Origin: Oikopleura dioica
Taxonomy: Eukaryota > Animalia > Chordata
NCBI GenBank assembly: GCA_907165135.1
Contig: OU015570.1
Coordinates: 1,426,001 to 1,490,000, forward strand
DNA length: 64,000 nt
Direction: 5' to 3'
Position 1 is the first letter of the stretch. The number at the start of each line of letters is the position of its first letter. The notes beneath the pieces were generated by a model that had not been told where the DNA came from, ran no database searches, and worked only from the letters and a program-made list of their open reading frames with translations. Positions 30,962-64,000 of the stretch are shown here, in pieces. Made by a program: the position numbers and the translations under genes.

Positions 30962-31229
30962 GCGGTCGTCACTTCCAATCTTTCGGGATCGCTCGAATCA
31001 TTCGGGAGTTTTGGTGGGGATCACGCTATAAAAAAGTGGTATAAATGCCGAATTCGGGCATTTGCCGAATCAAAACGATAATTCTATCTGTCTTCGTCAA
31101 ATTCGATGGTCTTAGAAGGCCAGACCTTTTATCAATGGTGAATTCGCAGTGAAAGAGAATGTGTTCGCTCCGCGCCTGTCTTATAGAGAATTTCATGAGC
31201 TTTAGATCCACTTATTCGAGTAAATTATT

Positions 31230-31430: not shown

Positions 31431-31575
31431 ATTATTTTCTTTTTCGTCAAGCCTTAATTTGCTTCAATAAAGACGTACTTTGACGTAACTGTATGGCTTT
31501 AAATATTTTCTGGGTCAGAAATTACTGAAAATCATAGCTTTTTCCGAAGAGCCACAAAAGGCGAAGGACGAGTTC

Positions 31576-32064
31576 GTGATCTCGCTGCGAGAAGGCATGA
31601 TCGCCGTCTTCAAAGCGGTTTTTGCGACATTGTTCACGGAGCTGCTCCCGATGCTCATGGACCCGGAGAGGCTTCAGCGAGGCACGCTTACTCGCGTTGT
31701 TGCGAAGTTGAAACAGGGTCTGCTCGATTCCGTCGGTGATAACGTCGGGGCTGTTCGCATCTCTCGATGGTTGGAAAAGGCGAGATCTACGCAATCCAGC
31801 CTGTCGCGACACGAAGCTGTTGCCTCCCTGCGAAAAGTCTTTCCCACCTCTTCCGACATCGTGCCCAATGCCTACAAGGTTTGGGGACTGGCTGAGATCG
31901 ACAAGAAGATCGCCAAGGGCATCTCCAACTGGAATGATGCCTCTCAAGCGGCTGCGCCGAGCTCTGAAACGGAGCCTTACTTTCCTAAAGTGACTGCGGT
32001 CGGGCAGGTTAGCCCATACCAGTCCATGTCTTTCACTGAACAAGCCCGCAGTCACTACTTCTGA
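31576..32064 (+). CDS. ORF1 (C-terminal part; gag-position helical protein) of element A
   Basis: HEAVASLRKVFP..YKVWGLAEIDKKIAKGI aligns with element B WDAIRTLRKIWP..YRALNLNDIDNRLERGL. Confidence 0.7.
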   Translation: MISLREGMIAVFKAVFATLFTELLPMLMDPERLQRGTLTRVVAKLKQGLLDSVGDNVGAVRISRWLEKARSTQSSLSRHEAVASLRKVFPTSSDIVPNAYKVWGLAEIDKKIAKGISNWNDASQAAAPSSETEPYFPKVTAVGQVSPYQSMSFTEQARSHYF

Positions 32065-32403: not shown

Positions 32404-34800
32404 TTGTACTTCAGATTCAGAAATCAAATGGGGAGAGTCGCTCGAGAAATGGCGGAGCTGGTTCAAAACGGGCGTTACAATGTTAAGAAAAGGGAGAGAA
32501 TTAGAGCGTGCTCTTTAAACCAGTCCCCGGAGGATGAGAATGCCCCCTTTGGTCCAACGGAGATTGGCACGCTTATGGGTGGAAAGCCTTAGATTTGATT
32601 ATTCCGCTTTTAGAAGGGAAAATTACTTCATCGTGGGATATGGTCAAATTTAGGTCGGAGAAAGATTTTGTCTGCGGTACTTTTTGCGAATTTAATGATG
32701 TGTGGCTGCCAATGATCAACCTTATGCCGCTTGAAGTTAGAGGGCAGTTATATCACACGGTATTTAACGAAGTTAATTTGTTTGATAACCTCGACAGGAT
32801 TGATCCACCCAAATTTGTGTGGTATAAGAACCACAAGGTCTGCACCTTTTATACCAGAAACCCGGATAATAAAAAGCTCCTAGCTTATAGGGGTAAGAAT
32901 GAGCCCAGAGCGAAGTCGGGGAATATGAATACCCCAGAAATGTTTAATATCCAGTTTTTGCTTCTGGACCGCTCAAGGGCAGCCCTTTTCGAGTTGAGAA
33001 TAGAAGGGACATTGGAAGTTTCCATGAGCCCATTCTTAAGCAGCTTATAAGCTGGGCAGACAGTTCTTCGGTAGAAGTCGTCGATAAAACAAAAGTCAAC
33101 CCCTAGCTTCAAGCAAATATGGTTGTAGTGCCGAAACAAGGCGCAGACAAGGTCCGAATCTGCTACAACGGGGGCCCCCTGAAGGTCATAGAAAAATTTA
33201 CCCAGCCTTGTAGGCTGGATAGTTGAGCCGAAGTGTTGCACTTTATCCGCAAAGGGGACCTTCTGTCAAAATTAGACGATAAGAGTGGCTTCTTCCACCT
33301 CAAGTTGGACAATTTTAGTAGAGAATTGGCCAGCTTTTTCGCTATAATGCCGGGGCGTTTGGGCTGCCCAAGCTCCCCGGCATTTATCAGCTGGTTAATA
33401 ATACGCCAGTTAACTTTCTAAGGCATTTCGGGATTCATATCTTTTTGTATTTGGACGATCGCCTCATCATTTTGCGCCCTAAGAATAAAATCGAGGCAAA
33501 GGCTATTAAAAAGGACAGTCTTATTAACGACAGCAGTTGGCACTTTTCTTAACAGAGAAAAGAGTGACCTTCTTCCAAAATCAGAATTGGAGTTCTTGGG
33601 TTTTACCCTGAACACGGATAGGTGCACTTTCCGGATTCCAAATGATAAATGGCAGCGGTTCTGCTCAACCCTCACCAAAATACTAAAGGGAAAGTCCACG
33701 CAGTGGCCCTCGAAAAGCTCAGAGGAAAAATGGCTAGCTTTTCGTTGGTAGCGCTTAATATGCGCATGTATATTAGGGAAACGACCAATGCCCTGGTCAA
33801 TGCGACTGATGAGTGGATCAAGGTAGAAGGTTGCTGAAAGATGAGTTGCGAGCTTGGCTTGAGACTCGTGTGATCCTCAAAGAGAGATCATGGCTGAAAC
33901 CTGGTCTGAACACGGTTAAAACAGAGGTTTGCACTGATGCTTCAAACTCGGCTGCCGGGTTATACATTCAGTCCGAAAAGCTGGAATTGTCAGTTTCATG
34001 GCCGGAAGGTCACAGCATTGCAACTCAGTCGATTTTCGCTAAAGAAGCTTGGGCTATCTTGTATCTTATCAAGACTTTTGGCTCAAGATTTGAAAATTCC
34101 AGGCTGATGCTCTATAACGACAATCAGAACGTGGTTGATACATTTTTGGTGGTAGTCGGAACATGTACATCAACAACATTCTTGAGGAGATTCACATGCG
34201 AGCTCAAGACCATAATATAAAGATGGAAATAAGCTGGGTTCCCACTACTGATCAAAAAGCCGATGCGGCGTCAAGAACTCAAGACAACAAGGAAGCAATT
34301 TTTCGTGAGAGCGCCTTCTTGCGAGTTCAAAAGACCTAGGTCTTTGCTTTTCCCTTGATGCTCTGGCTACCGAGGCCAACACCAAATGCCCCTGTTTTAT
34401 TACAAGAAAAAGAGCGAGAGATCCTTCGCAACCGATTTCTTCACGGTTAAAGACTTCGGCAATCATGTGATCTGGGCTTTCCCCCAAGGCCTATCACTAC
34501 GGCAGTTTTTCTTATCTCCAAAAAGCAGCGAGAAAAAACTTGTAGGTTTTAGTTATTGCGGAACTCAAACACATATCTCCCATTTGGCCAGAAATTTTAA
34601 ATCTCCCTTATTTCAAAAGAATAGACTTGGATTACAACGAGCCTCCAGTCATGTACCCGTCAGCAGACTTGGACAGCGAACTCGGCTATTGGCGAATTCC
34701 GAAGAGAGTGCACTTCTCGCTGCTTCTGCATTCTCCCGAAAAATTTGCCTCAGTTCCTTTCTTCATGAGTCCTTTAAAAAGTCTTCCTATCCTCCTCTGA
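32404..34800 (+). pseudogene. pol: pol of element A: N-terminal extension, RT, RNase H, methyltransferase-like domain
   Basis: KLDDKSGFFHL; AFGLPKLPGIYQ; YLDD at 33448-33459; EFLGF; VCTDAS..KEAWAI..NDN..WVPTTDQKADAASR; LDALATEANTKC..IWAFP (MT-like). Multiple frameshifts. Confidence 0.88.
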
Positions 34801-34833: not shown

Positions 34834-36117
34834 ATGTCGCTTCCGACGTTTCTGCCCTTGAATGCCTCGACGGATAAGGCGATAAGACAACGCTGCGACA
34901 GATGGAGCTGAAAAATCCACCACGCCCATCTCGGAGCAAGACTACCGGAACATCTTGAATGGTCAACTGGCCGATCACGACTACAGGTTCATCTACGATC
35001 TCCTGGTCGACTCCAAAGAGGCAGTTAAGGAAAACATGCAGAGCATCAACGTCGCCACTAAGGAACGAGCGGAGGCGGTTCGAATCTACGATATCTGGAA
35101 GCGTTGCGAATCTTGGGTTGCCCAAGGTAATTTACCTTCTGGTTATTACTCCTCGTTGTTTCTTAAGGGAACAAGATACACGTGGATGACCAGCCTAATT
35201 GGGATCGTGACGCTGAAGACGTCAAGTCAGCTGTGGACAACGAAGAAGCTAAACTGCGATCTCTTCCCTCGGAACGCCTCAAGCTTCAAGATGCGCTTCA
35301 AAAGAACGAGGCCAATTTGAAGAAGTTCGTGATGCATAACATGCAGAGCTCTTTCGTCTTTGAGCAAGGGGGATCTTACTTCCAAGTCAGCCTGGGTGCG
35401 TCAAAACTTCGGCAGCCGAAGCACAAAAACCTGGATTACCTGGGCATTGAACTCCGCAACATTGTCACGGACGAGGATACCGTTCGCTCGCTTAAGTTCA
35501 AAGATGTTTCCACCTTCATCAGAACTTACACCGAAGCGGCGGGCCACATGCACAGCGACTACCACAACCTCACCCGCATCAAGTTGGAATTGATGAACAA
35601 CCCGCGAATGTCGAGATACGCCTGCTTGAACTTCATCAAATCCATCTGTGATTTGAGCTTGCAAACCGACATGGTGGCGCTGGTCAATCGCCTTATCCTC
35701 GATCCAGAGGCGAAGAAGGATCTGAGCAACAGCGTCGACCCTGCTACTTCAAACGAGCAGCTCGTCAACCAGAAGAGGGCTCCCTTCATGACGAAGAAAA
35801 ACTACCAGGAGACCCTCACCAAATACGCGTCAGAAATGACCGCCGAGCAGAAGAAAGAGTACGGCTACATTGAGCCGAAACGTCAGCGATCTCGTCAGCG
35901 TCAGCGCAACCGAAATGGCCGAGGTCGTGGTGGAGCTCGCAGTCACTGGGGTGGCGGATCATGAGGTGGTATCTCTTCCAACTGGGGGAACTCTGGTGGC
36001 ATTTCCGGCCAATGAAACAACAACTACCGTGGCCGAGGTAGAGGTAGAGGCTTGTACCGTGGTGGCGCTCGCTCTGGACAAGCGCCTTCTGCAGACAACA
36101 AATCGCCGCCGAAATAA
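34834..36117 (+). pseudogene. ORF-X of element A (coiled-coil N-terminus, RGG-rich tail), spliced
   Basis: A 41-nt GT-AG intron (35127-35167) joins WVAQG|NKIHVDDQPNW. The tail GRGRGG..RGRGRGRG carries two TGA lesions and there is a frameshift near the start. Confidence 0.75.
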
Positions 36118-36275: not shown

Positions 36276-37142
36276 ATGAGCGACAAGCGAAATTCTTTTC
36301 CTCTCAGCCCGTTTGAGCGAATGTCGCAGAAGGAGCGGATTAACTGGGTCATCTCCGAATGGAGAAAATCTGTTAAAAACAAGAGAAAAGCGGCCACTCC
36401 GGGGATGATGAAAAAATTCCTAGAAGAACTCGAGGTTCAGAACCCGAGTTCTCCAGTAGGATGGTCCGTCCTTAAAAGGGCAATCGAGTTCGGGGTTTCG
36501 GAATATCAGGGAAAGGACCTGATCCCTGGTGCCAGGGCTGAACTCAAGCTCTGGAGCAACGCAAGAGTGCGGGCGCAGGCTTCGGAAGATTTACAGTAGC
36601 CGAAGCAAGCGCCCGCATTCTCCGAAGGCCAAACCACTGATCTCTGCAAAGAAATGTGGAGATCTGACAACAACAAGGCCAAGCAGGCGACCGTAGTGGC
36701 GGGCCTATCTTTTTACACCGGAGCCCGCACTATTGAGATCTGCTCGTTGTACATCGAGGATCTAGAGGTGACTCAATCTGACGAGGCCCTCTTCATCTCG
36801 ATGCCTTTGCGTTTTTCCAAAGGTAACCCCAGGAAAGAGCGCAGAGAAAGACTTGCGCTCCCGATCTTGAGCTCTACCCCCATCCCGCTCATGACATGGC
36901 TGAGGTCAAGCCATATCCTGAATGGGAGATCAAAGGGCCGACTGTTCTCGGTGAACACTCGTAACTGTAACTATCATAACAAGGCTGCTGCAGCTCGCTT
37001 AAACTGGGATACAGCTCCGAGTGGACACTCTTTTCGAGTCAGTTTTGTCCTTAACGCTCTTGTTGCAAGAGCCTCAGAGGACGACATTATCCAAGCTTGT
37101 CGCTTGCGTCACGGTGACATGCTTAATATTTACCGAACGTAG
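36276..37142 (+). pseudogene. Tyrosine recombinase of element A (one nonsense codon at about 36597)
   Basis: YTGARTIE (Arg), FSKGNP (Lys), SGHSFRVS (HxxR), terminal Tyr in LNIYRT; LQ*PKQA matches LQYPKQA in element B. Confidence 0.9.
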
Positions 37143-37562
37143 CTCCATAATACGATCCATGGGGCCCCCTTCAGGATTGTCAGGGCAATCCGAAATCAAG
37201 CGGGTGGTGAGGATTCCCCCTTATCTTGCCAACCTCTCGCCACCCCCGCTCGCTCGATCAACGGCAACTATGTTTGAACGGGACCAGGCACAGTCCTCTT
37301 CTACCCCCGTCGAAGCTTTGGATGCCGAAGTCTCCGTGGGGATAGAAAAGATTGACCTTACAAATGAGTCGGCCGCTCCCCTAAAAGCTTATCCAAACAA
37401 CGCTCAAGGTGGTGAAGAAGGAAAAATCCGCTCTTCCGAAAGTCGAAGTCAAAAATTTTCCTGAGCTTTGAAATTTGGAAAATATTTGCTTGGGCAGCCC
37501 AAGCTCTAGTTTGCTTTCCGGATCAGTGTTTTTCTAAAAATTCCGCACGTTTAGACTACTCT

Positions 37563-39030
37563 GTGACCATGATCCGCTTCCCAATTACCCGATATGGCTC
37601 CATCGATTTCAATAACTTGGATGAAATGAATTTTTCATTCAAGCTGCAGCCGATTCCGGTTGCGCGAGGAAGTAACAGAGGCTCTGCTTACTGGGGACTC
37701 ATTCGCCGGGGAGCGGCAGCCGCTATCCACCCCTTCTCCCTTAACCTTGTTGGAAAGGTGATTGGCGACTTGGTCGCGAGGTTTGTCACCCACGGCTTAC
37801 CGATTTTTGATACTCCACTTTAGCAGCTTGCTTTGTGGTCATCAGACCACCAATCTTGGAGATCTCTTCCGACGGGAAATCGCTAAAGTGGAACAAGAAA
37901 TGGCCATCTTGTTCAAGCTCGTGGTTGGCGAGGAAGTCGACGAGAACACCGCCAACGCCGACTGGGCTATCCAGCGCATTGATGAGCTGCGCGGCTTCTT
38001 TGCTAGAACTGAGCGTTCCATCTTCGTCTGAACCTGCAAAAAATGGTGAAAGTGGACTTTCCAGCGTTCACCGCTGACCCAAGGTAGTCTCTCTCGCTCC
38101 GTTTCATTAACTCTTTGCATTAGCAACTGGCCCCAATACAAACTGTTTTCGGAACGCCTGGTTGCCATTGCGAGGGACTCCTGGTGCGAAGTCGCCGCTT
38201 TCTGGCAACGCTCCTTTCGAGTGAATCGAGAGGGATATTGCCCTGAATTGCTGACCAGACCGGCTCAAGAAGATACAAAGCAATTCTTCCGCGAAGTTGC
38301 GTTGGCTCTCTCTCGAGAGAACTTCCGTCGCCCAGCTCCTCTGAACGTCGTTTGGTTGGTCGAACGAGCCTTAAACTGAACTTAACTGAGCCTTTGTTTA
38401 TCACCTACCATGTAAGCCTTCACTACAATTCTTGTACCTCACTCTCTAGTGCGACCACCTTTTGCTCCTTGATACTGAATCTGAGGAGAAATGATTCCCA
38501 TTCTGATTGAATGGGAATGGCTTGCCCACCGGGCACAGCCAGCGGACATGCATGTGGTGCTGCGGGAGATGATTGGTCGGTACGAGCGAACTCGACCATA
38601 CTTGTCCTCGAAGATCGCCTTTGTGATTCACATCGCTCACACTAACGACTGGCGAATCCCTGTCGCTCGGCGGCCTCGCAGCTGGAAGAACTTCTCCGAG
38701 CCCCCTCGTCTCGATGAGTTCTCCCTCTACGATGAGGAAGACGTTCCAATTTCCAAACGGGAAAGGGTAAACATTTTAATGTGGTTGATTCAAGCTAACC
38801 AATCCCTCAGATGGAGTCAAGAAAACGTCGCCCTAACAAGCGATTGCGACTCAACCTGCAGCGATCTGCCCACGAGCTGCAGATGTAAGCTAGATTTCTC
38901 GGCGGTGCGGTTTATTTGTCTCAACCTGCTTCCGAACCCGAGAAGAAAGATTGAAATATTCTTGAGACCTCGGGGTCATTTGGGTTGCCCAAGTGGCCCC
39001 TTCTTCTTTGTCTGCTTTTCTACTCAGTAG
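37563..39030 (+). CDS. Accessory ORF fragments downstream of YR in element A (37563-37823, 37762-38031, 38491-39030)
   Basis: Co-oriented, protein-like ORFs located between YR and the terminal repeats; no motif recognised. Confidence 0.4.
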
Positions 39031-48514: not shown

Positions 48515-48744
48515 GTGGTAACAAGTACTCTCACGGGTAATTGCGAACTCAGGTCTACGCCTTAGTAGAGCTGTTTTGAGTCTTGAATCTTGTAGTCGCA
48601 GTGTATTGTCTATTTAGTCGTACACGCATAGACCCAAGTATAAAAAACCCGAGCAGGAATTTGACTAGCGTCAGGAGACCGGTACCAGGGTACTTTATTT
48701 GTGCCCTATTAGTTCCTAACGCCAAATCTCTCAACGGCGATCTT

Positions 48745-49605: not shown

Positions 49606-49699
49606 TCGCTTCTCGTCGAGTGTTCGGCGGTTTTTCAATAACTGCTGATGTTACTATGTGTGCAACCTCAGCAGAACTCCTCACTTGCCACACGTACTT

Positions 49700-50690: not shown

Positions 50691-51571
50691 GCCTGCCTCC
50701 GGTTTCCCTTCTGGTCGCCGCTTTTTCCTTTCTGAACCGCCGCGCTCGCGCTAAAACCTGCGCCGCGCGTCCAGTCAACTCTACTCTTCACCCTAGAATC
50801 ATCATCGTCTGGGGGCTGTCGTTGGTTCTCGAAGAAGCAGATCATGATCCTGTCTTGTTTGCTTGTTTTTATCGCGTACCGTATTTATGCGGAGCGCGCT
50901 GCATTTTCCACTCACTTCGTTCTTGCCCGCTCTAAGGAGCCCTTCAAAATATACCAGTCCTATTTCTACGCTAGACCCTCCATGATCTTTTTTGTTACAT
51001 TATTAGGCATATAATATGCCGCATATTCTTGTAATACTCCTCGTTTTCTAATTCTGGCGAGATCTGATTTGAATAATGTTTCATGTAATCGTCACGCTCA
51101 GCCGAATATCTTGTTTGAAATTGCAATTGCGAACAGAGCCGCCCGCCACCCGAAATTGGGAATATTTCATATCCTCCTTGTTATCTGTGATCTCAATATG
51201 AACAAGGTGGAATTCGCACTTGGCTCCAATAATCCTGTGCTCTAGTATGCATTACACATTACGCCCTTTTTCTAGAGCCTGACGCAGAAGAGCGTCTTTC
51301 TGAATGGATGATCGAGTCGCTTAATTTTCATCCCCAAGAACTTTTTGAAAAACTGACGCTTATAATTTATCCGTAAGCGGAAATGTAATAAACGGGGGCC
51401 AATCCCCCAAAGTTATACGTACTATCATAGTCTATCAAGTAGCAGCAGCTTCTTTCATGAGCGAACCGAAAATATTGCTCAAAAGAATTCGCAGAACGCC
51501 GTTCTGTATTTTCAGAACGCCGTTCTGGCAGAACGTACCCGCCCGTCACCCTACCCCCTACGTTAGTTAGT

Positions 51572-52047
51572 ATTATAATCACGCACAAATAACAATGGTA
51601 ATGGGAATATTCCCGAGCACGCGCAATAACAATACTGTGGTAGAGAAAGAGCCTTTCTAAGGTAATGGACTGGGCAGTATGTAGGGCGTGTGCTCGTTTA
51701 CCCTACATGTACTGCTTATTTCAGGGATGGTGGGCGGGAGAGTCTTTTGATTCAGCTAGGAGTCTTATTGGTAATGCTTCTGCTGAGAAAAAGGCTCTAT
51801 TTAAAATTCCTTTTTTAGGTTTTAGCTGCAGGCTAAGAACCTTTTGAATGAACCTGCGTGATTTCGGGGCACCCGCTCGAAACCAGGTGCTCTCGGGCGC
51901 CTTTGACACCTTCCGCTGCTTCCTGGGAGTCCCTGCCTCTGGTTACTAGGCTTCCTGCCGCGTTCTATTTCTAGCGGGCTGCTAATCCCCTGTCCTAGAT
52001 TCGGATTATAATCACGCACAAATAACAATGGTAATGGGAATATTCCC
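51572..52047. repeat. Pair of identical 43-bp direct repeats (51572-51614, 52005-52047); putative 3' terminus of element B
   Basis: ATTATAATCACGCACAAATAACAATGGTAATGGGAATATTCCC occurs twice. Confidence 0.9.
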
Positions 52048-52246
52048 TCCCTACCATTCTCGTTATTCTCGTCAATCGATGTCTAAGGATTCTTAATTTG
52101 GCAGGAAAAAGGATGGGAAGACTCTTTTTCATGTTGACAGCGTTATCTGTGGTCTAAGCTTCAGTTGTTTTCTGTTTCTTTTGCTTTTGATTGGCTTCTT
52201 GTGGTTCTTGGGGTATCTGAAACCTTTTTAAATGAATGAGTCTCCC

Positions 52247-53329
52247 TTATTGTGCCGTTTTTACCTGAAGAGAGTTGTCTTCGTTGTCGCTTCCGTTTCG
52301 CTTTCTGGCTCTTGATTTTGCGACGCTGACGGGCGCTCCCAAGTTGCTACACTCGAGCCAGCATCTTTCGTAGTAGTCCGGCATCGAGCTTCCTGGCGCC
52401 CAGCGGAGCGTGTGCGCGAGTGTTTGTTGCGAGAGGCCAGAGCGTCGTCCTTCGATGTAGAAACTGACTCTGCCTGTGTGTGCGGAAACCTGAATTGGAT
52501 TCTTACAGTTCGTGAGGACTTTTCGTTATGAACCTTCTTAGAGAGTCCTGCTTTGGCTCCGTAGCGGGCTAGGTAGTCCGAGGCGATTCTGGTGTGACCT
52601 TCGAGAGTCTTGAGGACGAGTCCTGTCGAGAAAATTTAGCTTGGGGTAAGTCGGATTCGGATTTTACCTGATTCTCGGTCTCTCACTTGTGCTCGGAGCT
52701 CGAGAACTAGCGGGACGCCGCGCTTCATTTCCATTGGAATGGTGAGAGTCTCCATGCGTTTGCAGAATGGGTCCGTTTTGCTGGTTCGGATGTGGAATCG
52801 CCAGAACTCTTTTCCGTCCTCCTTGACGCTTTCGCGATCTTCGATTCTGAGGTTGAGGGCCTCCTTCATTCTGGAACCCGTGGTGAAGCAAATGAAGAAG
52901 GCGATAACTGCTTCTCTTGGCTTTGGCTTGTTTGTTTTCATAAGCTCTTCCCACAACTGAATCGCTTCGGGCTCGTCGACGACTTCCGCTTGCTTAAGGA
53001 AAGGGTTATCGCCTAGAAGAGCGGAATTGGTTTACCTTGGGGTATTGGAGCGTCTCGGCTGCGGATTCCCGAGCTCTGTGCTCGCACCAGGTCTTGATCT
53101 TCCTTTTCTGTTTGGCCCTGAGAGTTTTCTTCGTTTGAGACGCGATTACGTCTTGGATCGTTGTGATTCCTTTTTCGTAAGCGTAGGCCTTGAGTCTTGG
53201 TCTGATGAGGAGCCTGTCGAGAAAGTGCTGAATCACGTCGTCGGTCTCGGCTTCGTCATAGCTGAAGGTAGCCATTGCCTCCGCCACTTCCCAGTGTTCT
53301 AGAAGATTCTTGTAGTCGAGCCAAGTCAT
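52247..53329 (-). CDS. Spliced tyrosine recombinase of element B (about 316 aa, intact)
   Basis: Exons 53329-53036, 52992-52668, 52622-52534, 52489-52247 (a further 3' intron is possible). Motifs TGSRMKE, TSKTDP, SAHTGRVS, LRW, DYY. Confidence 0.88.
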
Positions 53330-53505
53330 GAATCTGAATTGAGTCTTTTTGGGCTCGAGTTTTAGAGGGCCTGGATATTTAAAGTGTGAAAGGCTTTTTA
53401 GATTGGCAGTGTTTTTGAAAAAGAAAAACTAGGCGAAAAACTGCGCACTGCCAGAGGCTGTTCTTCGCTTAAGGAGTGGATTGATTCTTAAAGAGAGTCT
53501 TGAGA

Positions 53506-54793
53506 TTATTCGACTCCGCCTTGGTCTAGAAACTTCTTGGTGTCTCCTCCTTGATTGCTTCTACCGCCGCGGCCTCGCCCGCGACCTCGTCCTCGGCCTC
53601 CCGAATGTCCGCTTCCTTCGGCGTTGAATTTGGGGCTCGCATTTTCCCCTTGATGGTCCGTTTTCTGCTTCTTGCTTTGGCCGCCATTCGAGTGTCCTCC
53701 TCGGCGCCCACGGCCTGGTTTAGAGTCTTTTTCGGTGCGCCAGTCCTCCGAACCATCGCAGAGATTAATGATCATCTTTTTGAAGGTCGGATGAGTCGTG
53801 TTCATTGTCATGGCTCTGTCGAATTGGTGGCGCACGTTTGGGCGCATAACCGGCTAAAGCGGCTAAGGATTATGAGTCGTGGTGTTTTTTTTAAATGGTA
53901 GGTTTACCGTGAGGGATAGAAGCGCGTCTTTGCGAGTCATGTCCGGCATACGAATCAGTTCGTCGACGACGCTTTCGATGATCGCCCGCTCGGTGTACTC
54001 GGGAGTCATGGCTCTCTTATAGTTTCCGAGCAACTTCAGGAGCTTTTCTCGTCTGAAGGTCCGTTGAGTCTTGGCATCCGTGACGAACGCCCGGAATTCC
54101 TTGCCCATGTCTCGGAGGGAGTCTCCTTCATCTTTTGGCAGGCTTGTCGAGCCGACTTGAGTCTGAAAAATTAGGATTTTAGATTTTTTCTTTTCTTTTT
54201 TACTTTTTATTCTTACCATGAAATAGGATTCTACGCCAGTGAGCGGGTCCTTTTCCTTGAAGACCGCTGCAGACTCGGTCGTGTTTTGGGAGAGCTCGGT
54301 GATTTTCGTCTCCCGAGCTTTGATTTGGGCGAACATGGACCCCTTGAGGCTGTAGCGCTCCATCTTGTCGGCAATCAGGCGGCGGAGTTTAGATTCTATT
54401 TCCGATGGATTCCAACGATCATAAAATTTGTTCTCCTCCTCCGATCGCTTTTTGGCGTTGGGCTCTCGTTTTTTGATCTCGAGACTCTTGTCGCGGTTGG
54501 CTTCGAGTTCCGCGATCTCTTTCTATAATGAGAGGGAGTTTTTCCGCGTTTAGTGGAGATTAACTTACAATGAGGAAGTCGGTGAGCTTGTCGTGAGTCG
54601 CCATGTCTTTTCTGATATCCTCGATTTCCACGATGAGTCGGTCAGCCTCTTCCGTTTGAGCTTGAGTCTTTGAATGCTCATAGAATGCTGCCTTGGTGAT
54701 CTGGACTCTGACCGCCCGCGTTTTCGCTTCCTGCTCCGTGAGCTTCGTGTGGTCAGAGAGAAGCTTGGAGAGGGTCTTGGTCTGTTCTGCCAT
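53506..54793 (-). CDS. Spliced ORF-X of element B (377 aa; coiled-coil plus RGG tail, intact)
   Basis: Exons 54793-54569, 54522-54217, 54162-53908, 53853-53506 (three phase-0 introns). SYFMTQVGSTSL..GKEFRAFVTD aligns without gaps to element A SYFQVSLGASKL..GIELRNIVTD. Confidence 0.82.
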
Positions 54794-54898
54794 TTTTTCA
54801 ATTGATTCCGAGTCTAAAAAATAGGAGTTTTGAGATTCAGATTTTATATTTTCCGTGGATTGGCTGAATGGTGAATCTAAGAGAGAGGTTACAGAGCC

Positions 54899-57796
54899 TC
54901 AGAGTCTATTAGCAATAATTTTTATGGTTGAGATGTTCGTCGCGACTTTCCAGTAGCCTTCAGCAGTTTTCACTTTTGAGGGCGTGAGGATGGAATCCGC
55001 CGGTATGTCAAAGATTCTGTAGCCTTTGAGTCTGGCCTGTGTTACCACTACTGGTTCGGCTTCAAAGCATGGCACCACCAGAGCCCATGGCGTCGCTATT
55101 TCGGTGAGTCTGTTGTAGTATTTTTGAGAGATTTTGGAGGCGGGAACGCATATAATTTTCTTCCGATAAGTGCGTGGATTGGCAAGCTTAGGAAGTCTTT
55201 TCCAAAGGCTCCTTTCGTCTCTCGGCGTGCGATGAAGTCTCTGCATTTATTGTTGAGTGGCTGAACGGAATGAAAGTTTATTTGCGAGTCCGCTTCGCTG
55301 TTTGAGTCTTACCGTTGCTGCCACGTCGATGTCGAGCAGATCCCGGAGGTGAGATTGGAGATAAGCGAATCCGATTGCCGTTAGTTTTTGCTCCCTTGAG
55401 TCCAAATCCCTGGAAGGAGCGTCGGCCAGCTGCTTCTTTGTGCTGACCCAATCGACCTTCATGTCTATGTTGAAACGATGCGCCAGAGTCCAGATTCTGA
55501 CTAGAATCCGGTTCATTTCCGGGTCTTTGCTACCCGCTATCGCTCCTTGAACCACACTGTCGTTGTCGCAGAGAAACAGTGCTTTCTTGTTCTGAAGCCG
55601 TACCACTCGAGCGTGTATTTGATCGCGAGGGCTTCTTTGATACCGATGTGTTTGTCTGCTACGTCCGGCTCCCACGCGAATCTTTCTTCTAGCTTCCAGT
55701 GCTCGATGACGATGGCTCCTGCGTGCGAAGAAGCGTCTGTGTATACAGTGAAACCCCAACTTAAGGCCAAGCAACTTAAGGCCACTTTTTTGAAAAAACC
55801 CAAAAATATGTCATCCGAAAAAAATCCAACTTAAGGCCACTTTTTTTCCATTTTTATTCACAGTAAGTAAATCGCAGGAAAACAGGCGAGAAATGGGGAA
55901 GATAAGATATTTTTCGTAAAAAATTTCTTGGAATTTCTTTTCCGGTTTCTTGTCGATTTAATTTGGTCCAATGCCTCTTGAGTCCTTTTTCTTCCAGAAG
56001 ATTCCAGAGTCTCCATTCCTCTCGGACTTCTTGAGTCAGAATGCAGGATTCTTCTTCGTTTCTGATGGCTTCACTGATGAGGATTGTTGTTTGACGGATG
56101 AGCATTCTCATGTTCGGGAGGACTTCCGCCATGCTTGCCATTGTGCCTCTGATTCTTTCCAGCGTCCGCGTCGGAATTTCTGCCTCTGCTTCGGCCTCTT
56201 TCATGAGATTCTTTAGGGCTGACCACCTTGGGATTTGCATCTCTACCGTTTCGTTTTCTGTGTCTAGAATGAAGCCCAGGAATTCTATTCTTTGGGTAGG
56301 CTCGAAGGTGCTTTTCGCGATGTTAACATAGCCACCTAGCGCTACTAGCGTCGCTACCGTTGCCCAGACTTCCTTGCTGGTTTTTTCTCCCGACAGCAGT
56401 TGGCGGCGTTCTTCTTCAGATTCTGGAGTAACAGCCAAGAGTCTGTCATCCAAACAAAGCGTGATTTTGATTCCGTTTTTCCTCAGGAAATTGACTCCAC
56501 ACAGATTCATGAGTTGGTAGATTCCGGGCGCGGCTGGGATTCCGAAGGCTAGGATATTGTTTCTGAAATATTGGCCTCCCCATTCGAAGCAGGCGAGTTT
56601 CTTGCTCTCTTCGCTGAGCGGGAGCTGGTGGAATCCTAGATTTGAGTTTTTAGTTCTGAGGCTTTTGCTGTTGTTTTACCTTTTTTATCGTCGAATTTGT
56701 ACAGTAGATCCCCTCTTTTGAGCATCTGAATCGCTGTTCCAATGCCTTCCAATTTACACGGGAACGTGTATAGTTGAAGCGGTTTGAGAACTCCACCGTT
56801 CCAGCAGACTCTTGTCTCTCTGCCTGGCTTGTCAACCAGAAAGAATCCCGCGCGGATCCAGCATCCTTTGGCTTCTGTGACTCTTGTTACTGAGCCCATT
56901 TCGCACCAGTCGGTGATTTGTTGGGCAATCTCATCGCTTCTTTCTCTTACAGCTTCCTGGCTCGGGATTGTGAGAGTCTTGAATCGCTTGCCGATTTTTT
57001 CGTATGGTCGAGGCACAAATTTTGAGAGTCGTAGTCTGTGGTTGTACCAGGTTTTGAAATTTCCGTCCATCTTCCTAAGAGTGTCCGCGTTGGCTGCGTT
57101 TCTTTTCCAAATAGTTACCAGTTCCTTTCGCTAAAATTTGACTGGCTTCTTCGGCGGTATTCTTTTGAGATTCAAAAATAGGTCTGCTCCTGCGTGGACG
57201 AAGTGGTAGATAAAAGGCTTCACTTTCTCGGGCATCTGATGGATTAGGACTCTCCAGTTATCTTTGTTGTGGGTCCATTGGCCGGCGATGAAATCGGATT
57301 CTTTTTTGAGCGCCAGGTCCCTCCAGTCGGGCTTGATCTCGTTATTAAGGACTTTTATGACTCTGTGAAGCAGATCTGTCTCGTAGACTCTCCATTCAGG
57401 TAAGGATTTTGGGCCGGTGATTGGATCGTTGTGAATGTTTACTGGGTTTATGATTGGAAATCTCGGTCTATTGAAGATCCCTTTGTTCGCCATGGCCTGC
57501 ATCTCTGATTCGATTGTTTCCCAGCTCTTCGTCTTCTTCGTTTGCTCTCTTTCGTTTGAATCCCGCGGCTGTGCGGGCGGACTCATAGCTTCTCGGAATC
57601 GGGATTTTCCAGAAGAGTTTCTCGTATGTGGTGCCATAAAGTGAGGATGGATCTTCGAGTCCTCTCTCGAGGCGGTTGTCGATGTCGTTGAGATTGAGGG
57701 CTCTATATTCAGCATCAGCGATGCAATCTCTCGGTGGCCAGATTTTACGCAGCGTACGGATTGCGTCCCAGGCCGTGTAATCTTGATTCGAGTCAA
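54899..57796 (-). pseudogene. pol: pol of element B (N-extension, RT, RNase H, MT-like), with intron(s), a MITE insertion and CLDD
   Basis: Intron 56636-56679 splits DDKKG|FHQ. Motifs AFGIPAAPGIYQ, CLDD (56445-56456), EFLGF, YTDAS, KEALAI, CDN, WVSTKKQLADAPSR; C-terminal GYW is shared with element A. Confidence 0.88.
55746..55945. mobile_element. pogo-like MITE fragment inserted into the RNase H of element B
   Basis: TA|CAGTGAAACCCC at 55744, at the Tyr codon of YTDAS; similar to 43134-43230 and to about 8235-8290. Confidence 0.65.
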
Positions 57797-58679
57797 TGTT
57801 CGTTAAGAATTCTTTGAGCGTCAAACTAATGGGATTCGATGCTCCGCAAAGCGTGTTAAGGTGAGTTCATGCTGATCTTGCTGCACTTGATAGGAGTCTT
57901 GGAAAGATGCATCGCGTGTTCGTTATCTGGAAAAGGATTTCTCCAAATATTGAGTTGGCGATGGAGATGCAGAGTTGTCTTTCTTTCGCGAAGGAAGCGT
58001 GTCTTTTGTCCGGGCTCAACTCTAGAATCTTTTTGAATCTGATGTTCCAAATGTGAGCTATGAGCGTCATTCTTGGTGATGCTCGAGAGTTGAGGTTTTC
58101 TGGTGGCTTGCATCTCGCTAAGATCATTCTGAAGATGGCTTCTGCAGATTCATTACAGAGTCTTCCCAAGATCCAAGCGGCGGCCTCTTCTAGCTTCCGA
58201 AGATCATCTTTTGAAACTGAGTCTCTTTCCAGTGGCTCCATCATTTTGGCCCAGAAGGTTATTTCCGCCGAATTGTAGACGCTAGAAGCGTGGACTTGCT
58301 TCATTAGCTTCTCCACCACAGGTCTAACTGTCAGTTCCAGCGTGTCTTGAATCGTCTCTAGATCCACCTTGTTTGTGGACGCTTGTCTTCGGTTGATTCC
58401 TATGGATGGGCTGTGCGCGATTATGGCAATGGTTTGGAAGGCGTCTAGCAGTTGAATTCCCTGGAGACCCTCATGCTCGGCTTCTTGGAGGATCGTTTTC
58501 ATAATTTTTGAGGCCTCTTGGGACTCGGAGATGATTTTGGCAGCTTCTGTTGCTAGATTATTGATCTTGTCATCCAGCGTCTCGCCGTAGCATAAGATTC
58601 TTTTTGGTGGGATGGAAGCGTTTGTGTTGAGGCTGTTTTGGATGTCCCAAACGAGCCCTTTGAGTCTCTCCAGGTTCAC
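57468..58679 (-). pseudogene. ORF1 of element B (gag position, about 400 aa, one TGA), overlapping the pol 5' end
   Basis: ORFs 57867-58679 and 57468-57824 are in the same frame, separated by one TGA; homologous to element A ORF 31576-32064. Confidence 0.75.
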
Positions 58680-59069
58680 GCTAGTGCTTTGCCCTTGCTG
58701 AGGATTCTTCGAGTCAATTTGGCTCTCGTTTGGCGGGCTTTCCGGTTGGTCCGAAGGTGGAGCTTCGTCGTTCGAGTCTTCTTTTTAGGGGCTCTTTTTT
58801 TTTAAAGTCATTGGTTAAGAGGATTCTGGCTTTTTTGTGACTCTTTGTTGCCCTGGCCTGACTCTGAAGGTAATTTATATTCCTCTGGCATTCCTTCAGG
58901 CTCTGCATTTTGACTCTCCATTCTGAATTTTTGGCTCTTTTAATTTTGGCGAGTTTTCATATATTTTAATAACAAGATTTTTTATCTTGTAGCTTGAGGA
59001 TTTACGGTTTAGATTCCTATTTTATGATGCTTCGAAGTAAATAGGCGAGGATCTTCTGGTGAGATCGAA

Positions 59070-61766
59070 TTATTTATTATGTACAGCTTTTTTGGAATTT
59101 GGAAAATGGAAAGAGGTAAGTTCTGTTTCAATGTTTTGAGGAAAAAGGCAGTATGAGTCTAAGAGTCTGGAAAGAGTTTCTTCTCTTCTTTTTCTAGTAG
59201 TGGCGTGGAGGTTTTGGGGCGGCGTCTGAGTGCACTGGGGGAATCGGGATGTCGTGGAGTCTGAAGAGTCGGACGAACACGAATCTTTCTGCTCCGCCGC
59301 TGACTCGAAGAGTGTGTCTGTGCGTCTGCTCCAGTCCTGTTGTTCCTTCTGGGCTTGAGTCTCTGGGAATCCGACTGTAGCTTCATCTTCTTCTCCGCCG
59401 GATTCTTCCATGATTTCTTCGTCTGAAGAAAAGCCATCTTCGGAGTCTATTGGAGCATTTTGGCTGGCCGGAGGCATGAGTTGAGTTGGGTCTTTTGGGT
59501 GGAGTCTTTTGATTGTTACAGTTTTAATATGATTCCCTTTTTATGTGGTTACTTTTGCTCGATTTTCGATGTTTATGAATTTTATGACTCCTTCCTGAAC
59601 GGGCGTTGTACGAGTCTTCGTACAGATCTGGTTCTGAGACGCTGTCTGCCTCTTCGTTGTTGGCCGAGTCTTGTGCTGGAGCAGGGTCTGGTTGCTGAGT
59701 CTGAGTCGAAACTGAGGAGGTTGGATTCTCCGTCTGAGTCGCCGAGTCTGCCGAGTCTGAATCTTTCAGAAAGAGGGTTTTGAATTGTTTTTTTAATGGA
59801 TTTTCGATAATTTTGGATTCTTTGAAATCAGGACTGATTCTATTTTTTGAATTGGCCTAAGTGAGTCAAAATTGAAAGGCCAAGAGCTCATCCACCTTTT
59901 CTTATGTGGATTTGTTTTATGGTGCGTCATTTTTTCTTTTAATTTTAATTCGAGTTTTAATTCCGATTATTATTCTCAATGAATCTCTTTTTCTTTGAGA
60001 TTCTTACAGCCTTTTCCTTGGGTGGTTTGGGATTCCTGGCATTTTGCCTGCTGCGCTTCCACCGGGTGAGTCTGAGTCGTTCCGTCTCGCCGCGACGTCC
60101 AGCCGATGGTCCTTGAATCGCGTCTTGCCAGCGTAGCTGCAATGTCTTTCGGGACTCCATCGCTGACGTACTCGTTTCGTCTTTGCTTCTTCCAGCTACG
60201 CAGAGAGTCTTTGCCATCTTTGGAGAGTCGATCTTGGCGGAGGAGAAAGTCCGCTCTTGACTTTTGAAAGGGTTTTTTAAAGTTCTAAGGCTCGACTTAA
60301 TGTGTAAAGTTTTAATTTGACCCTTTTCCTTGAGAGCTGAGACTCTTTCTTGATACGCTGGGAGTCTTCCTTCCGGGATCACGAGTGACTCCTCAATGTA
60401 GACGATGTTGAGGAGCGGGTGGACGTCCATGGCGGCTTTGGCGGCGTTGAGGCAGCCGTAGAAGAGACTGTGGTCTGACTGGGCTCGGTCGTCCTCGGCG
60501 ATTTTCTGGTTTTCTTCGCGCACGAGCTCGGAGAGGACTCGGGAGATGTCGTTGATGGATTTCTGCCAGCCATCGAGGGACATCTGAGCGTTGGGGTCGG
60601 TGAGTCCTTTAATGAGAGTCAGAATTTTTTAATAGAAGCAGAATCTAAGGCTTGAGAGTCTGTTATGGAAATTGTTTTTCAAGATTTAAATTTTCTTTTA
60701 AGTTCTTTTTTCTTTTTATTCTCTGACCCATTCCTTCGACCATTTGCTCGAGAAGATTTTTGAATCTGTCTCCAATCTTCAGTCTGAGTCGAATGAGCAT
60801 TCGTCCCTTCGATTCCTGCGGGAACTGAGTCACCGGGTCCATCTTGATCGCCGATTTGATCTTCCTCCAGTAGTCTGGCTCGTCGATCGGGTTTTTGGTT
60901 ATTCCGGCTTTCTCTCGGAGTCTTTCGAGCTCTTCAGCGTCGTGAATCTGTGCGTCTTGTGCGTCTCGGGTCATTTCTAGGGTCTGAAGAAACGCCTTTG
61001 TTAGCAAAGAATCGAAATTTTGGTTTTGGCTAGTTTTGTTTGGAAGAGCGCAAGGAAAATTTGAAAAGAAAGAGCGAAATTTTAAAAAGAAACACGAGAA
61101 AAAAGAGTCTAAATTAAGATCCGGAAGGAAAGAATCTTTTTTTTTTTGATTCTCTGGTTTTGACGCGTCTGGTTCTAGCGTAATCCGGTGGTTTTTCTCT
61201 TTATAAAGGGCTCTGGATGATTCTCTTTTTGTTGGAGAAAAAATGATTCTGATTTAGGCAATTTTCGCTTGAGCCCTGGCTTATCCTGGCTCGTTTTGGT
61301 GCTCCGCCAATCAGCGCGCTCTATTTCGTGAGACAACTTTGCCACTTTCCCACGGTCTCCAATTTGGATTTTATGCTATTTGATTCCAATCTTTAGATTC
61401 TTGAGACCATTTCCTGATTCTTGTGCTCTTTCGGATCTTTTTTGTGGAGATTGGTGGTTGAGGAGGTGCGCAATTCGAGGAAAAAGTGTTTTTCTCTCGT
61501 AAGACTCTTTTTTCTGTGATTTTTGCTAATTGAGAGTGAAGTAGATTCTTTTTGAGTGAGAATTTATCAGATTTAGCGAGTCTTTTCCTGAGGTTTGAAG
61601 ATTCTTGAGCTTGTTTGCGGCAGAAAAGGGGGGTTTTTGGGCGATTTTTGAGTCTTTTCGAGGGCTCCGAGTCTCTTTTTCTTTTCTTTTTACTTTTTCT
61701 TTGGAAATTTCTGATTCTTTTGGGCCCTTTTCCTGACTGTATTTTTGGTGAAGTTTTTGGAGTCAT
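59070..61766 (-). CDS. Cluster of accessory ORF/exon fragments (59070-59477, 59957-60583, 60663-61007, 61371-61766)
   Basis: All on the minus strand with A-rich GT-AG-like gaps; acidic/basic low-complexity and helical segments; no motif recognised. Confidence 0.45.
61190..61320 (-). promoter_or_regulatory. Putative internal promoter (CCAAT box plus TATA)
   Basis: Minus-strand CTGATTGGC (about 61305) upstream of TTTATAAAG (about 61200), in an intergenic gap. Confidence 0.35.
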
Positions 61767-61769
61767 TTT

Positions 61770-64000
61770 CTAGTCGCTTTCCGTGGCTTCAGCGACATTC
61801 AGACGAGCGAATCGTTCTTCGATGTTTTGACGGTCTTGAGACCAGACGTTCGGGAAGAGATTCTCGACTTTGGCTTCCTCTCCGTGGTCTAGGTCAAGAT
61901 TCTCCGCTGCCTTGATTCCGTCGAGGATTATGTCCCTGATGTGGGTCGTGAACGGTGCGTCTGGGACTAGAATGTGGGTTTTGGCCGTCACATTCTCCCA
62001 GGTTGTTCGATTGGCTCTTATTTTGAGCTTGTATATTTTCGAGACTGCTCGGTTTTTAGCGTCGAAGCCGTTGCAGCATCTGACCATGGTTTCCGCCACC
62101 CTAGGGTGTGCCCAACACGGGGTAAATGCAGATTCGTAGTCCCAATCGCAGGCCATTTGGAAGATTTCCCAGAGTCCCGAGATTCTTGGGTTTTTGTCCC
62201 CTTGGAGTGTTCGATGAAGACTCTTCGTCGGGCCCTGGGTGACGAATTTAACGTAAGGTGCCGACCAGGTGACGAGAGCTTCTCTGAGTTTCTTGGCGTC
62301 TTTTTGTGAAGGGAGAATCAGCACCGTGTTTTTCTGGCATGTGAGTTCGCTGATAATTTTCGCCACTTCCATCCATTTGTCTCCAGATTTTTTGGAGATA
62401 GAATCCGCCAGTCTCGGGAGATGTTGATTCTTTCTGGCTGAGGTGTTTCCAACTACGAAAGCGTCGAATTTTCCTCCGCATCTTTCTAGCCCTGCGTGGT
62501 AGATGACTATTCCAGCTGCTCCCGGATTCTCGAATCGTGGCCTTTTTAAGACTCTTCCGAACTTCCGGAGACTTTCGCTGAGGTTCGCTGCTGTGTCGTT
62601 TTCTCCTTGAAAAAGGATTGCCGTGGATTTCCAAGCGTTTACGATAGAGTCGAATCCTTCGACTTCGCTGCTCTGGATTCTTTGGATGAGGTCTTCGTCA
62701 GCGTCCTTAAGCATAGTTGTTTTGAAAGATTCGGAGAGTTTGTAGAAGGTTTCTTGCCATTCCTCGCTGTTGATGGACATTTTTGTGCCCTGGGGGAGTC
62801 CTTTCTGTATGAAGCCGTTTGCGACTCGGCATTTCTCTGAGCAGTCTGGTTGGCGAGATTCTTTGAGTTCTTGGAATCCTTGATGTGTTTTACACCAAGT
62901 CGTGCTCGCCTCCGCTTCCCCACACATTGGCCATTCGCACGATCTTTCTCTTTTTTCTGGTTGTTCTCGAAGGAATCTGAGTCTCGTGACTCCCGTGACT
63001 TCTTCTCTTTTCTGCATCCAGGTGTCGATGAAGTTGTCCAGAGTCTTGTTTGGGCTGAATCTTTTGCCATTTGCCCAGTTCCAGCCAGTTGATAAGATTC
63101 CGAGATTATGCTCGAGTGAGCGCAAGTGAGAATGGGCTTTTGTGTCTCTTACAACCTTGGCGATGATTTCCAGGATGATCTTCTGAGTTCGAAAGGGGCG
63201 GTTGACTCCGACTAAGCAGGCTCCTGAGGCGTAGAAGTTTCTCGTTGGCTTCTGGAACGCCGAGATGCATTCTTTGACGTTTTGAGTGGTCCAAGGTTTG
63301 GAGGCTAGCTTCTCAAGCGCTTCTGATTCTAACGTCGTGAGCGCTGGGTGGGCTGCAAGGGAGAGGAGGGATTTCACTTTGATATGATCAGAGTCCTCGC
63401 CGTAGTTGAAAACCCATATTTGAGGTACGACTTTGTAAGGAATCCACAGGATCCAGTGGGAATCCCCTTTTCCAACTTCTTTGACTCTAACCGTGGTATT
63501 AATCGGGTACACCTTTTTCGCCGCTGACTCCAGCCACTTTTTGAGGGACCGGGAATCTTTGAGTTCGCTCCAGTCCACGTGCCATTGGGTGGGCATTTCC
63601 TTGCAGCTTCCGTCTTGGCCAATGACTGAGTCTTGGATGAGCTGTTTTTGCACCAAGTGAAGCAGCAGTGGTGAGAGAATCTTTGTTAAGGGAGTCGGAT
63701 TCGGAATGGGTGAGTCTTCCGGCGCATATTCGCCGATTATGTCGATGATCCATGCGTTCACATTCGCCGGTTTTTTGTTTGCCCATTGGGTGTCCTCGTT
63801 TGCTTTGAGTTCCAGCCAGGCATTTTTCTGATGGCAGATCTCATGCCAGTCGCTGTGGAGAGACTTCAGCATCTTGAGCGAGTCCAGTAGTTCTTCTGGC
63901 GTGATAAAAGCGTCTGACCTTGGCATTGCGTCGAAGATCGTTTCAAGACCTTTCTTTATGAGTCTTCGGAGCCAATTGTCGTCCGTGAAGCTTGGGCGTT
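61770..64000 (-). CDS. Large ORF (over 740 aa, open to the window edge) with a C-x4-C-x9-C-x2-H finger and a putative SGNH-hydrolase-like fold
   Basis: The frame is open upstream of the Met at 63926. Motifs CEWPMCGEAEASTTWCKTH; ILFQGENDT..FENPGAAG..FDAFVVGNT..VLILP..WAHP. Confidence 0.7.
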   Translation of the reverse strand, partial: RPSFTDDNWLRRLIKKGLETIFDAMPRSDAFITPEELLDSLKMLKSLHSDWHEICHQKNAWLELKANEDTQWANKKPANVNAWIIDIIGEYAPEDSPIPNPTPLTKILSPLLLHLVQKQLIQDSVIGQDGSCKEMPTQWHVDWSELKDSRSLKKWLESAAKKVYPINTTVRVKEVGKGDSHWILWIPYKVVPQIWVFNYGEDSDHIKVKSLLSLAAHPALTTLESEALEKLASKPWTTQNVKECISAFQKPTRNFYASGACLVGVNRPFRTQKIILEIIAKVVRDTKAHSHLRSLEHNLGILSTGWNWANGKRFSPNKTLDNFIDTWMQKREEVTGVTRLRFLREQPEKRERSCEWPMCGEAEASTTWCKTHQGFQELKESRQPDCSEKCRVANGFIQKGLPQGTKMSINSEEWQETFYKLSESFKTTMLKDADEDLIQRIQSSEVEGFDSIVNAWKSTAILFQGENDTAANLSESLRKFGRVLKRPRFENPGAAGIVIYHAGLERCGGKFDAFVVGNTSARKNQHLPRLADSISKKSGDKWMEVAKIISELTCQKNTVLILPSQKDAKKLREALVTWSAPYVKFVTQGPTKSLHRTLQGDKNPRISGLWEIFQMACDWDYESAFTPCWAHPRVAETMVRCCNGFDAKNRAVSKIYKLKIRANRTTWENVTAKTHILVPDAPFTTHIRDIILDGIKAAENLDLDHGEEAKVENLFPNVWSQDRQNIEERFARLNVAEATESD

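Follow-up and report, generated by a model that had tools for sequence, protein, structure and literature searches.

Elements A and B of Oikopleura dioica as probable decayed members of a marine clade of giant retroelements with a tyrosine recombinase and PAT-like ends

The window analysed here is a 64,000-nucleotide stretch of Oikopleura dioica DNA (contig OU015570.1, positions 1,426,001 to 1,490,000; positions below count from its first letter). It carries two retrotransposons with a tyrosine recombinase (YR): element A (31.5-39.6 kb, plus strand), which has lost its 5' end, and element B (51.6 kb to beyond 64 kb, 51572..64000 in the window, minus strand). We propose that both are decayed and belong to a clade of YR retroelements of unusual size whose ends are PAT-like. 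The probability we give this is roughly 0.62, a joint figure for the whole explanation, including copying through unspliced RNA and self-recognition by short palindromic words. The family is a giant, intron-bearing, often barcoded variant of the PAT-like YR elements. As judged by sequence comparison, its core is shared and its cargo is lineage-specific.

Gene content and ends of elements A and B

A and B have the same gene order: ORF1 (ORF, open reading frame), pol with reverse transcriptase (RT), RNase H and a Dam-like domain, then ORF-X and YR. The initial annotation had described two diverged elements with four colinear homologous genes, and each pair passed a tblastn or a shuffle test. The pol N-extension and RT gave tblastn E values of 1e-24 and 9e-16, and none of 200 shuffles reached the scores of ORF1 (score 64, z 8.3), ORF-X (z 9.8) or YR (z 35.9).

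Over its second exon, the ORF-X of A agrees at 100% of positions with an annotated protein, Oidioi.mRNA.OKI2018_I69.YSR.g17113, and on this identity we assign the window to the Y-specific region of the Okinawan O. dioica. B recurred almost unchanged in the DNA contigs of two runs, in long pieces and at even depth (40-52 in X1, 66-80 in X2). Therefore, B is real sequence without a near-identical second copy in those two runs. The features are as follows (MITE, miniature inverted-repeat transposable element).

Element A
31537..32064, plus: ORF1, 3' part only, truncated at a MITE remnant (30964-31535); homologue in YSR.g17087
32419..34800, plus: pol, without visible intron; many frameshifts and stops
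34834..35964, plus: ORF-X; one 41-nt predicted intron (35127-35167); annotated as YSR.g17113, spliced at the same place
36276..37464, plus: tyrosine recombinase; in-frame stops at 36597-36599 and 37140-37142; Phage_integrase E 6e-5
37567..39030, plus: three or four small accessory frames, function unassigned, enclosed by the terminal repeats
B1 39163-39208, presumed A2 39209-39559, B2 39560-39605, plus: split direct repeat end; 46 bp repeats, 98% identical

Element B
61770..64000, minus: U1, accessory gene without assigned function; 742 codons lie in the window, whose edge cuts the open frame
59070..60975, minus: U2, multi-exon accessory gene; first intron 60607-60727 frame-preserving in a frame test, later exon borders provisional
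57468..58784, minus: ORF1, in the place of gag; about 440 codons, with one stop in frame (57867-57869)
54899..57500, minus: pol with N-extension, RT, RNase H and Dam-like domain; predicted introns 56636-56679 and 55261-55312
55756..55940, no strand: MITE inside pol, between RT and RNase H; matches 43132-43246 and 8234-8305; peak of DNA-contig depth; without GANTC
53506..54793, minus: ORF-X, 380 codons, with coiled-coil hairpin, small helical domain and RGG tail; predicted introns 54523-54568, 54163-54216 and 53854-53907
52247..53329, minus: tyrosine recombinase, 316 codons, open once predicted introns 52993-53035, 52623-52667 and 52490-52533 are removed
52005..52047, minus: terminal repeat B1 (43 bp), identical to B2 and 86% identical to the same place in the relative L018
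51615..52004, minus: presumed A2 repeat (390 bp), so named from its flanks, B1 and B2; the matching A1 would be past 64 kb
51572..51614, minus: terminal repeat B2, the 3' end of the element; GANTC density drops to background just beyond 52 kb
51572..64000, no strand: GANTC barcode, 228 sites; each 2 kb has 30-45 of them, compared with 2-14 in other parts of the window

Decay is much further advanced in A than in B. The YR of A is 49% identical over 314 residues to its intact 408-residue relatives P0001 and P0002. The 2 kb after it, noted in the initial annotation, lie inside the element because A's terminal repeats come later; the small frames there gave no Pfam or PHROG match. Since the 5' end is cut at the MITE remnant, the extent given for A is a minimum. 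Insertion of A into the MITE at 30964 was rejected, the right end of the MITE not being found after A. A GC-richer 200-bp insertion inside the remnant (31230-31430) has no match elsewhere in the window.

Upstream of B's ORF1 lie 5.2 kb of co-oriented coding sequence (58.8-64 kb), including the 742-codon frame of U1, in agreement with the more than 5 kb noted earlier. It is very likely that these genes, U1 and U2, belong to the element. Both recur in B's order on the X chromosome, where XSR.g13516 is 38% identical to U1 and, after its U1 part, matches U2 at 60616-60092 (E 2e-12) and 59495-59166. A guessed second intron of U2 did not keep the frame when tested and is not claimed. The relative L017 is open across the position of the in-frame stop in B's ORF1, and the ORF1 of L010 has 458 codons. 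The pol of B has an RVT_1 match (Pfam, E 1e-6), is 64-83% identical to chr1.g887 and is damaged by a stop near 57131, the MITE and two frameshifts near 55600 and 55140. One of these frameshifts may be an assembly error, since the stated error rate of the assembly is 1.3% (PMC8008620) and the DNA contigs over the broken part have one gap each. In the YR, the R, K, HxxR, W and Y positions are all there. The sense strand of B is strongly A-rich.

With RT and RNase H, and a tyrosine recombinase in place of a DDE integrase, the elements belong to the order DIRS; Pfam found RT, RNase H and a phage-type integrase in the window, all below the curated cut-offs. Both 3' ends have the form B1-A2-B2, with repeats of 43 bp (B) and 46 bp (A) around 390 and 351 bp. 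Such an end is described for PAT-like, Ngaro and VIPER elements (PMC6681497, PMC8547959, PMC9210276). PAT-like elements combine split repeats with a methylase-like domain, DIRS1-like elements have inverted ends and Ngaro elements lack the methylase-like domain (PMC3266345, PMC7192593, PMC9210276). The repeats at both 3' ends are direct, with no complementary copy in the window, which sets the family apart from DIRS1-like elements. The Dam-like domain separates it from Ngaro-like and, together with the tunicate host, from VIPER-like elements. This domain follows RNase H. It matched PF05869 in the relative P0018 (E 1e-4, which does not reach the curated cut-off), and it can be aligned throughout the family and with the same domain of the DIRS-type P0076. 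The layout is not the compact one of three ORFs (gag, pol and YR), as ORF-X lies between pol and YR and there are many accessory genes. Therefore, we file the family as a variant working like PAT and not as an ordinary member. ORF1 fits gag by its position; Pfam and PHROG gave no match for it.

Relatives, introns and encoded proteins

A protein search with the RT exon of B gave 2143 matches at E 0.001, of which the best 150 were kept. A FastTree tree was calculated from 139 RT/RNase H cores over 385 columns (136 of 163 sequences past a length filter, plus A, B and a gypsy outgroup); it contains no named PAT, Ngaro or VIPER reference. A, B, the metagenome loci and about 50 mostly unnamed marine-metagenome proteins among the matches listed form one clade (support 1.00), with A and B on separate sub-branches. 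Its sister consists of Dam-like-bearing sequences of Branchiostoma (amphioxus), Glandiceps (hemichordate) and Actinostola (sea anemone), and it lies outside the branch that holds the tick DIRS-type P0076. The named clade members among 20 proteins looked up, within or near the clade top, are all from O. dioica. JGI metagenomes, when scanned, contributed 22 loci, and 18 of these fall within the clade. We left uncounted P0004 (94% to U1, possibly the same locus in another assembly), L003 (a 2.9-kb exact doubling) and L005 (a duplicate of L012). The clade pol proteins P0010, P0013 and P0159 lie on ENA contigs of 24.4, 22.0 and 12.5 kb, sizes that would fit more giant elements.

Six loci reach at least 1.4 kb past pol, and the order pol, ORF-X, YR is present in L004, L012 and L018. 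The O. dioica pseudo-autosomal model PAR.g11282 is a fusion of pol, ORF-X and YR in B's order. Conservation of the gene order thus held for these copies, and failed within reach of pol in L009-L011 (see below). Colinearity extends over 11.7-19 kb among the four copies L004, L006, L007 and L012, which resemble one another at 70-86% and lie on contigs of 15.9-23.7 kb. With relatives spanning at least 19 kb, the suggestion of a large multi-gene YR lineage of over 12 kb was supported. L004 and L012 (86% overall similarity) break off at a shared terminal stretch: its last 160 bases hardly differ between the two, and its end resembles B's repeat. The core of that repeat of B is retained in L018 despite a pol only about 65% identical.

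L012 has 24 coding segments outside pol, ORF-X and YR, three of them on the opposite strand. All are open in at least one other copy, and their ratio of nonsynonymous to synonymous substitution (dN/dS) is mostly below 0.2 (e.g. dN 0.035 vs dS 1.0). Purifying selection on RT is strong (dN 0.02 vs dS 0.87). Pfam gave 0 matches for 20 non-pol, non-YR frames of L012 and L004. A 15-bp motif lies upstream of several genes, oriented as the gene. Between divergent genes in L006 (4665-4744) and L007 (4762-4849), two copies of it stand back to back, like a two-way promoter. One small segment (L012 8074-8261, L006 2188-2383) has moved between the otherwise colinear giant copies.

Eight GT-AG segments of 43-54 nt interrupt B, two in pol and three each in ORF-X and YR. 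Their removal gave the open 380-codon ORF-X and 316-codon YR and restored two conserved pol motifs. We predict that these segments are introns and are spliced; the breaks in B's ORF-X and YR would mostly be introns and not decay. The median host intron is 49 nt (PMC8008620). The annotated paralogues chr1.g887, PAR.g12203 and PAR.g11282, which are gene predictions and not RNA, join at B's places, and the YR exon junctions match PAR.g11282 and L018. L018 has seven of the eight introns whole and begins inside the eighth, which is whole in L013 and L017. A further RT intron is present in L017 and L018 and absent from B and L013. The single predicted intron of A, in ORF-X, has another position than B's, and the L012 lineage has others again, with an intron-free pol. 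For ORF-X intron 3, the first acceptor tried left a stop that the next AG, nine bases on, removes. A candidate ninth intron (52222-52261, minus) lies at the end of B's YR, close to an intron of L018.

Introns appear to have been gained, long retained and sometimes lost, and this pattern fits unspliced RNA as the copying template: because the proposed template is unspliced, introns would be inherited, with rare precise losses. No RNA run was listed as containing the sequence. Two RNA runs under the same species label yielded 3 and 4 partial reads over 46-64 kb; as the material may come from another population, sex or tissue, these counts speak neither for nor against expression or splicing. Goodwin and Poulter reportedly found introns in a few YR retrotransposons.

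A separate coiled-coil/RGG gene of about 380 residues between pol and YR had been noted in the initial annotation, and ORF-X of B agrees with it: 380 codons without its three introns, a modelled hairpin and an RGG tail. We modelled 308 residues of the PAR.g11282 paralogue with AlphaFold (10-row alignment, mean pLDDT 67, pTM 0.39). The model has a long antiparallel coiled-coil hairpin (residues 45-156, pLDDT mostly about 90), a beta-hairpin and a small helical domain (192-278). Its structure matches were generic coiled-coil hairpins (best Z 11.4, root-mean-square deviation 3.5, 111 aligned); BFVD gave none at E 0.001 and Atlas no usable match. Judging from the model, ORF-X with its RGG tail most plausibly binds and packages RNA. 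Either ORF1 or ORF-X may form the particle.

The single-sequence fold of U1 had a pLDDT of 37. Foldseek with this low-confidence fold gave no match at E 0.001, nor did a 3-row profile against the PDB. U1 as helicase C (Atlas 0.77-0.80) was set aside as a weak lead, the values being within chance range and Walker motifs not visible by eye. The label virus-like found no support. The accessory proteins had no capsid, envelope or other viral family match in Pfam, PHROGs and BFVD, and IMG/VR had 0 relatives among 41 pattern matches. These blanks leave room for a capsid or envelope gene.

Dam-like domains derive from sequence-specific DNA enzymes. In every clade member aligned, motif IV is FPP, against the catalytic (D/N/S)PP(Y/F). 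From this motif, binding without catalysis is more likely than methylation.

Palindromic words, mechanism and alternative explanations

We scanned all gapped palindromes against order-2 Markov simulations in 27 sequences, where the best host control reached z 6.1. GANTC occurs in B 228 times vs 88.5 expected, with a sharp edge at the element's end. Upstream genes (114 vs 42) and core (109 vs 45) have the excess to a like degree, and elsewhere in the window there is none. Tested by synonymous-codon shuffles, GANTC reached 84 vs 44.8 +/- 4.7 (43 vs 24.0 in U1) and was the sole one of 16 such palindromes unreached in 300 shuffles. L013 has GANTC as in B (34 vs 13). Other relatives have other words: CCTNNAGG in L004, L006, L007 and L012 (41-65 vs 2-6 expected; in the L012 pol, 8 vs 1.1 in codon shuffles), GCNGC in L018 (68 vs 30), GCCNNNGGC in L016 (13 vs 1) and TCTNNAGA in L015 (9 vs 1.4). 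Altogether, 8 of 17 clade loci exceeded the best host value. Every codon phase has the excess, as do introns and spacers; the inserted MITE has none. Between L012 and L004, 53 of 61 CCTNNAGG sites were kept (control words 44%); for L012 and L006 it was 24 of 31 (control words 16-19%). B and L018 are 67% alike in RT DNA, yet their words differ.

Since the words are palindromic, they point to recognition of double-stranded DNA, and we lean towards their being binding sites for an element-made protein. The Dam-like domain is the best candidate because only the core is common to the barcoded lineages and this domain is its sole member from sequence-specific DNA enzymes; we make the assignment tentatively.

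A retrotransposon with an unspliced RNA template is the likely mode of propagation. The host would transcribe spliced single-gene mRNAs off internal promoters, plus one unspliced RNA spanning A1 to B2. ORF1 and ORF-X, the latter with its hairpin and RGG tail, would bind the full-length RNA and pol. RT and RNase H would copy this RNA, jumping between repeats to give a DNA circle, which the YR would integrate. The Dam-like domain of pol would read the palindromic word of its lineage, binding instead of methylating, and a protein coating of the element every 55-300 bp may shield it from silencing or keep the enzymes for use on cognate copies. The DIRS-order elements of O. dioica are Y-enriched and carry mixed H3K9me3 and active marks (PMC5240408); by analogy, such marks would suit an anti-silencing role. 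In its most complete form, a widespread marine clade of 12 to >20 kb would carry a lineage palindrome in its genes, read by the methylase-derived domain of pol, with a specificity that shifts between sisters. This form is possible and still rather doubtful.

Several observations weigh against our explanation. Neither A1 nor a whole element was seen: A1 was not found within the window, where B runs past the edge and A is 5'-truncated. L009, L010 and L011, which form one sub-branch, have no ORF-X or YR within 1.5-2.4 kb after pol; in L010, three different frames occupy this region. Between B, A and L012 the accessory genes have no similarity, so that only the core is shared. Splicing and a full-length transcript are predictions. 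The FPP-type motif also occurs in the ordinary DIRS elements P0076 and P0045 and is not clade-specific. A and 9 of the 17 clade loci have no word above the host control; the wordless loci are short (1.8-6.5 kb), yet L010 and A are long enough to reveal one. Finally, the unrelated, distant DIRS-type locus L020 has GGAN6TCC 10 times vs 1.1 (z 8.3), which may be chance or barcoding beyond the clade.

The words of the same family could instead come from biased mutation or repair, for example methylation-directed repair of the kind proposed for HIP1, an active element methylase writing the mark and the words having no binding role. The lineage-specific palindromes do resemble methylase sites, pol does have a Dam-like domain, and alternate HIPs follow the methylase present (PMC4390886). 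Such a bias would likewise keep word sites in place. However, the altered motif IV of all aligned clade members speaks against a writing enzyme, and no adenine is fixed in GCNGC or GCCNNNGGC, which leaves an N4-cytosine activity as the one kind able to serve every word. We consider this origin unlikely.

Less probable still is that the giants move mainly as DNA, by YR excision and reinsertion as Cryptons and Starships do, with RT rare or used for another step. This would account for introns and two-strand genes without a 20-kb unspliced RNA, and it agrees with the three opposite-strand genes of L012, with the apparent upstream motif of most genes, and with introns that persist across deep divergence, no intron-less joints being listed in the DNA contigs of two runs. 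Against it, split direct repeats are a hallmark of retro-copying YR elements (PMC6681497, PMC9210276) and are conserved here, RT and RNase H have kept their motifs intact and evolve more slowly than any other part, one intron cleanly differs between sister lineages, and the sense strand of B is A-rich. The lowest probability goes to a compact PAT-like element that lies next to, or within, host genes or some other, unrelated mobile element, which would make the upstream frames of B foreign. No homologue of U1 or U2 was detected in the giant relatives, and A1 was not seen in the window. Yet the GANTC excess upstream is as high as in the core, strand, skew and depth are uniform, single contigs cross from pol into U2 in two DNA runs, and four relative copies have more than 9 kb of linked upstream genes. 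Membership of B and A in a clade of large, RNA-copied YR elements is the explanation we prefer.

Other sequences surround the two elements. A second gypsy-type element (48580-50935, plus; gag-like frame of 300 codons, RT E 1e-10) ends just before the 3' end of B, and B may have inserted into or beside it. Immediately outside B's end there is a 36-bp hairpin (51492-51527), where the contigs of two runs switch to other sequence. Depth was high at 51401-52000, possibly from solo repeats; this bin includes flanking DNA and was not used. A decayed Ty3/gypsy element (Tor-like; 200-6100, minus) has a CCHC gag and a pol with RT, RNase H and integrase zinc finger. Opposite to it, a 159-codon frame with an RGG tail at its end (266-745, plus) gave no match with the ORF-X profile. 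MITEs and short tandem arrays, densely packed and often nested, fill 8-47 kb without a long reading frame.

Comparison with known systems

YR retrotransposons have been described as compact, the known relatives being about 5 kb long. The present family is three to four times larger, gene-rich and intron-bearing, which raises the question of how splicing and termination are evaded in an RNA of 20 kb that has internal genes in either orientation. In raw sequence, its words also show where an element begins and ends. No function has been known for the methylase-like domain of DIRS elements, according to PMC7192593 and PMC9210276, and sister lineages with different enriched words make the question directly testable. 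If the words are read as proposed, each Dam-like domain should prefer the word of its own lineage. This would give the domain a function and provide a natural library of small programmable DNA readers.

DIRS1-like elements in O. dioica were reportedly noted by Volff in 2004. Four copies in two families (PMC3266345) and 519 Y-linked regions (PMC5240408) are on record. They have the host, the chromosome and three domains in common with our elements, and some may be pieces of the present family; the passages concerned (PMC3266345, PMC5240408) give no structure, length, introns or accessory genes. The term undescribed thus held in part: DIRS-order elements of this species are on record, and no description of this size, order or barcode was found in a literature search with Repbase and three key papers outside it. 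In the O. dioica genome, 44% of repeats are unclassified (PMC8008620).

The closest likeness is to PAT-like elements of the order DIRS (PAT of Panagrellus, SkowPAT, TOC, kangaroo), which also have split direct repeats, a pol with RT, RNase H and Dam-like domain, and a YR. Extra domains known in YR retroelements are the methylase-like domain and the Ngaro hydrolase (PMC9210276, PMC7192593, PMC3783388). Described members of the order have three, at most four, often overlapping ORFs, and DIRS1-like ones, given as shorter than about 6 kb, measured 4.0-6.3 kb (PMC3266345). In contrast, the elements here have an extra conserved gene between pol and YR, up to two dozen cargo segments, a size of 12 to >19 kb, many introns and palindrome barcodes.

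Intron retention is a trait of Penelope-like elements. Terminons and other Penelope-like elements, as well as the gypsy element Burro, are retroelements of giant size too; their accessory ORFs are numerous, and some encode coiled-coil proteins (PMC6431247). They belong to other RT clades and have neither a YR nor split repeats. In its passages, that review of giant transposons lists no YR retrotransposon, with 0 occurrences of 'DIRS' (PMC6431247).

For the words, one parallel is VANDAL/VANC of Arabidopsis, in which a transposon amasses short motifs that serve its own protein; from one family to the next, the two have changed in concert (PMC5735166). VANDAL is a DNA transposon, its motifs lie in non-coding tandem repeats and protein binding was demonstrated; the palindromes here are dispersed, also inside coding sequence, and the binder is only a candidate. 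The other parallel is cyanobacterial HIP1 and the alternate HIPs, where one highly iterated palindrome varies with lineage and methylase (PMC4390886). HIP1 is bacterial, genome-wide and accompanied by active methylases, whereas the words described here are restricted to one mobile element whose methylase-like domain is apparently catalytically altered.

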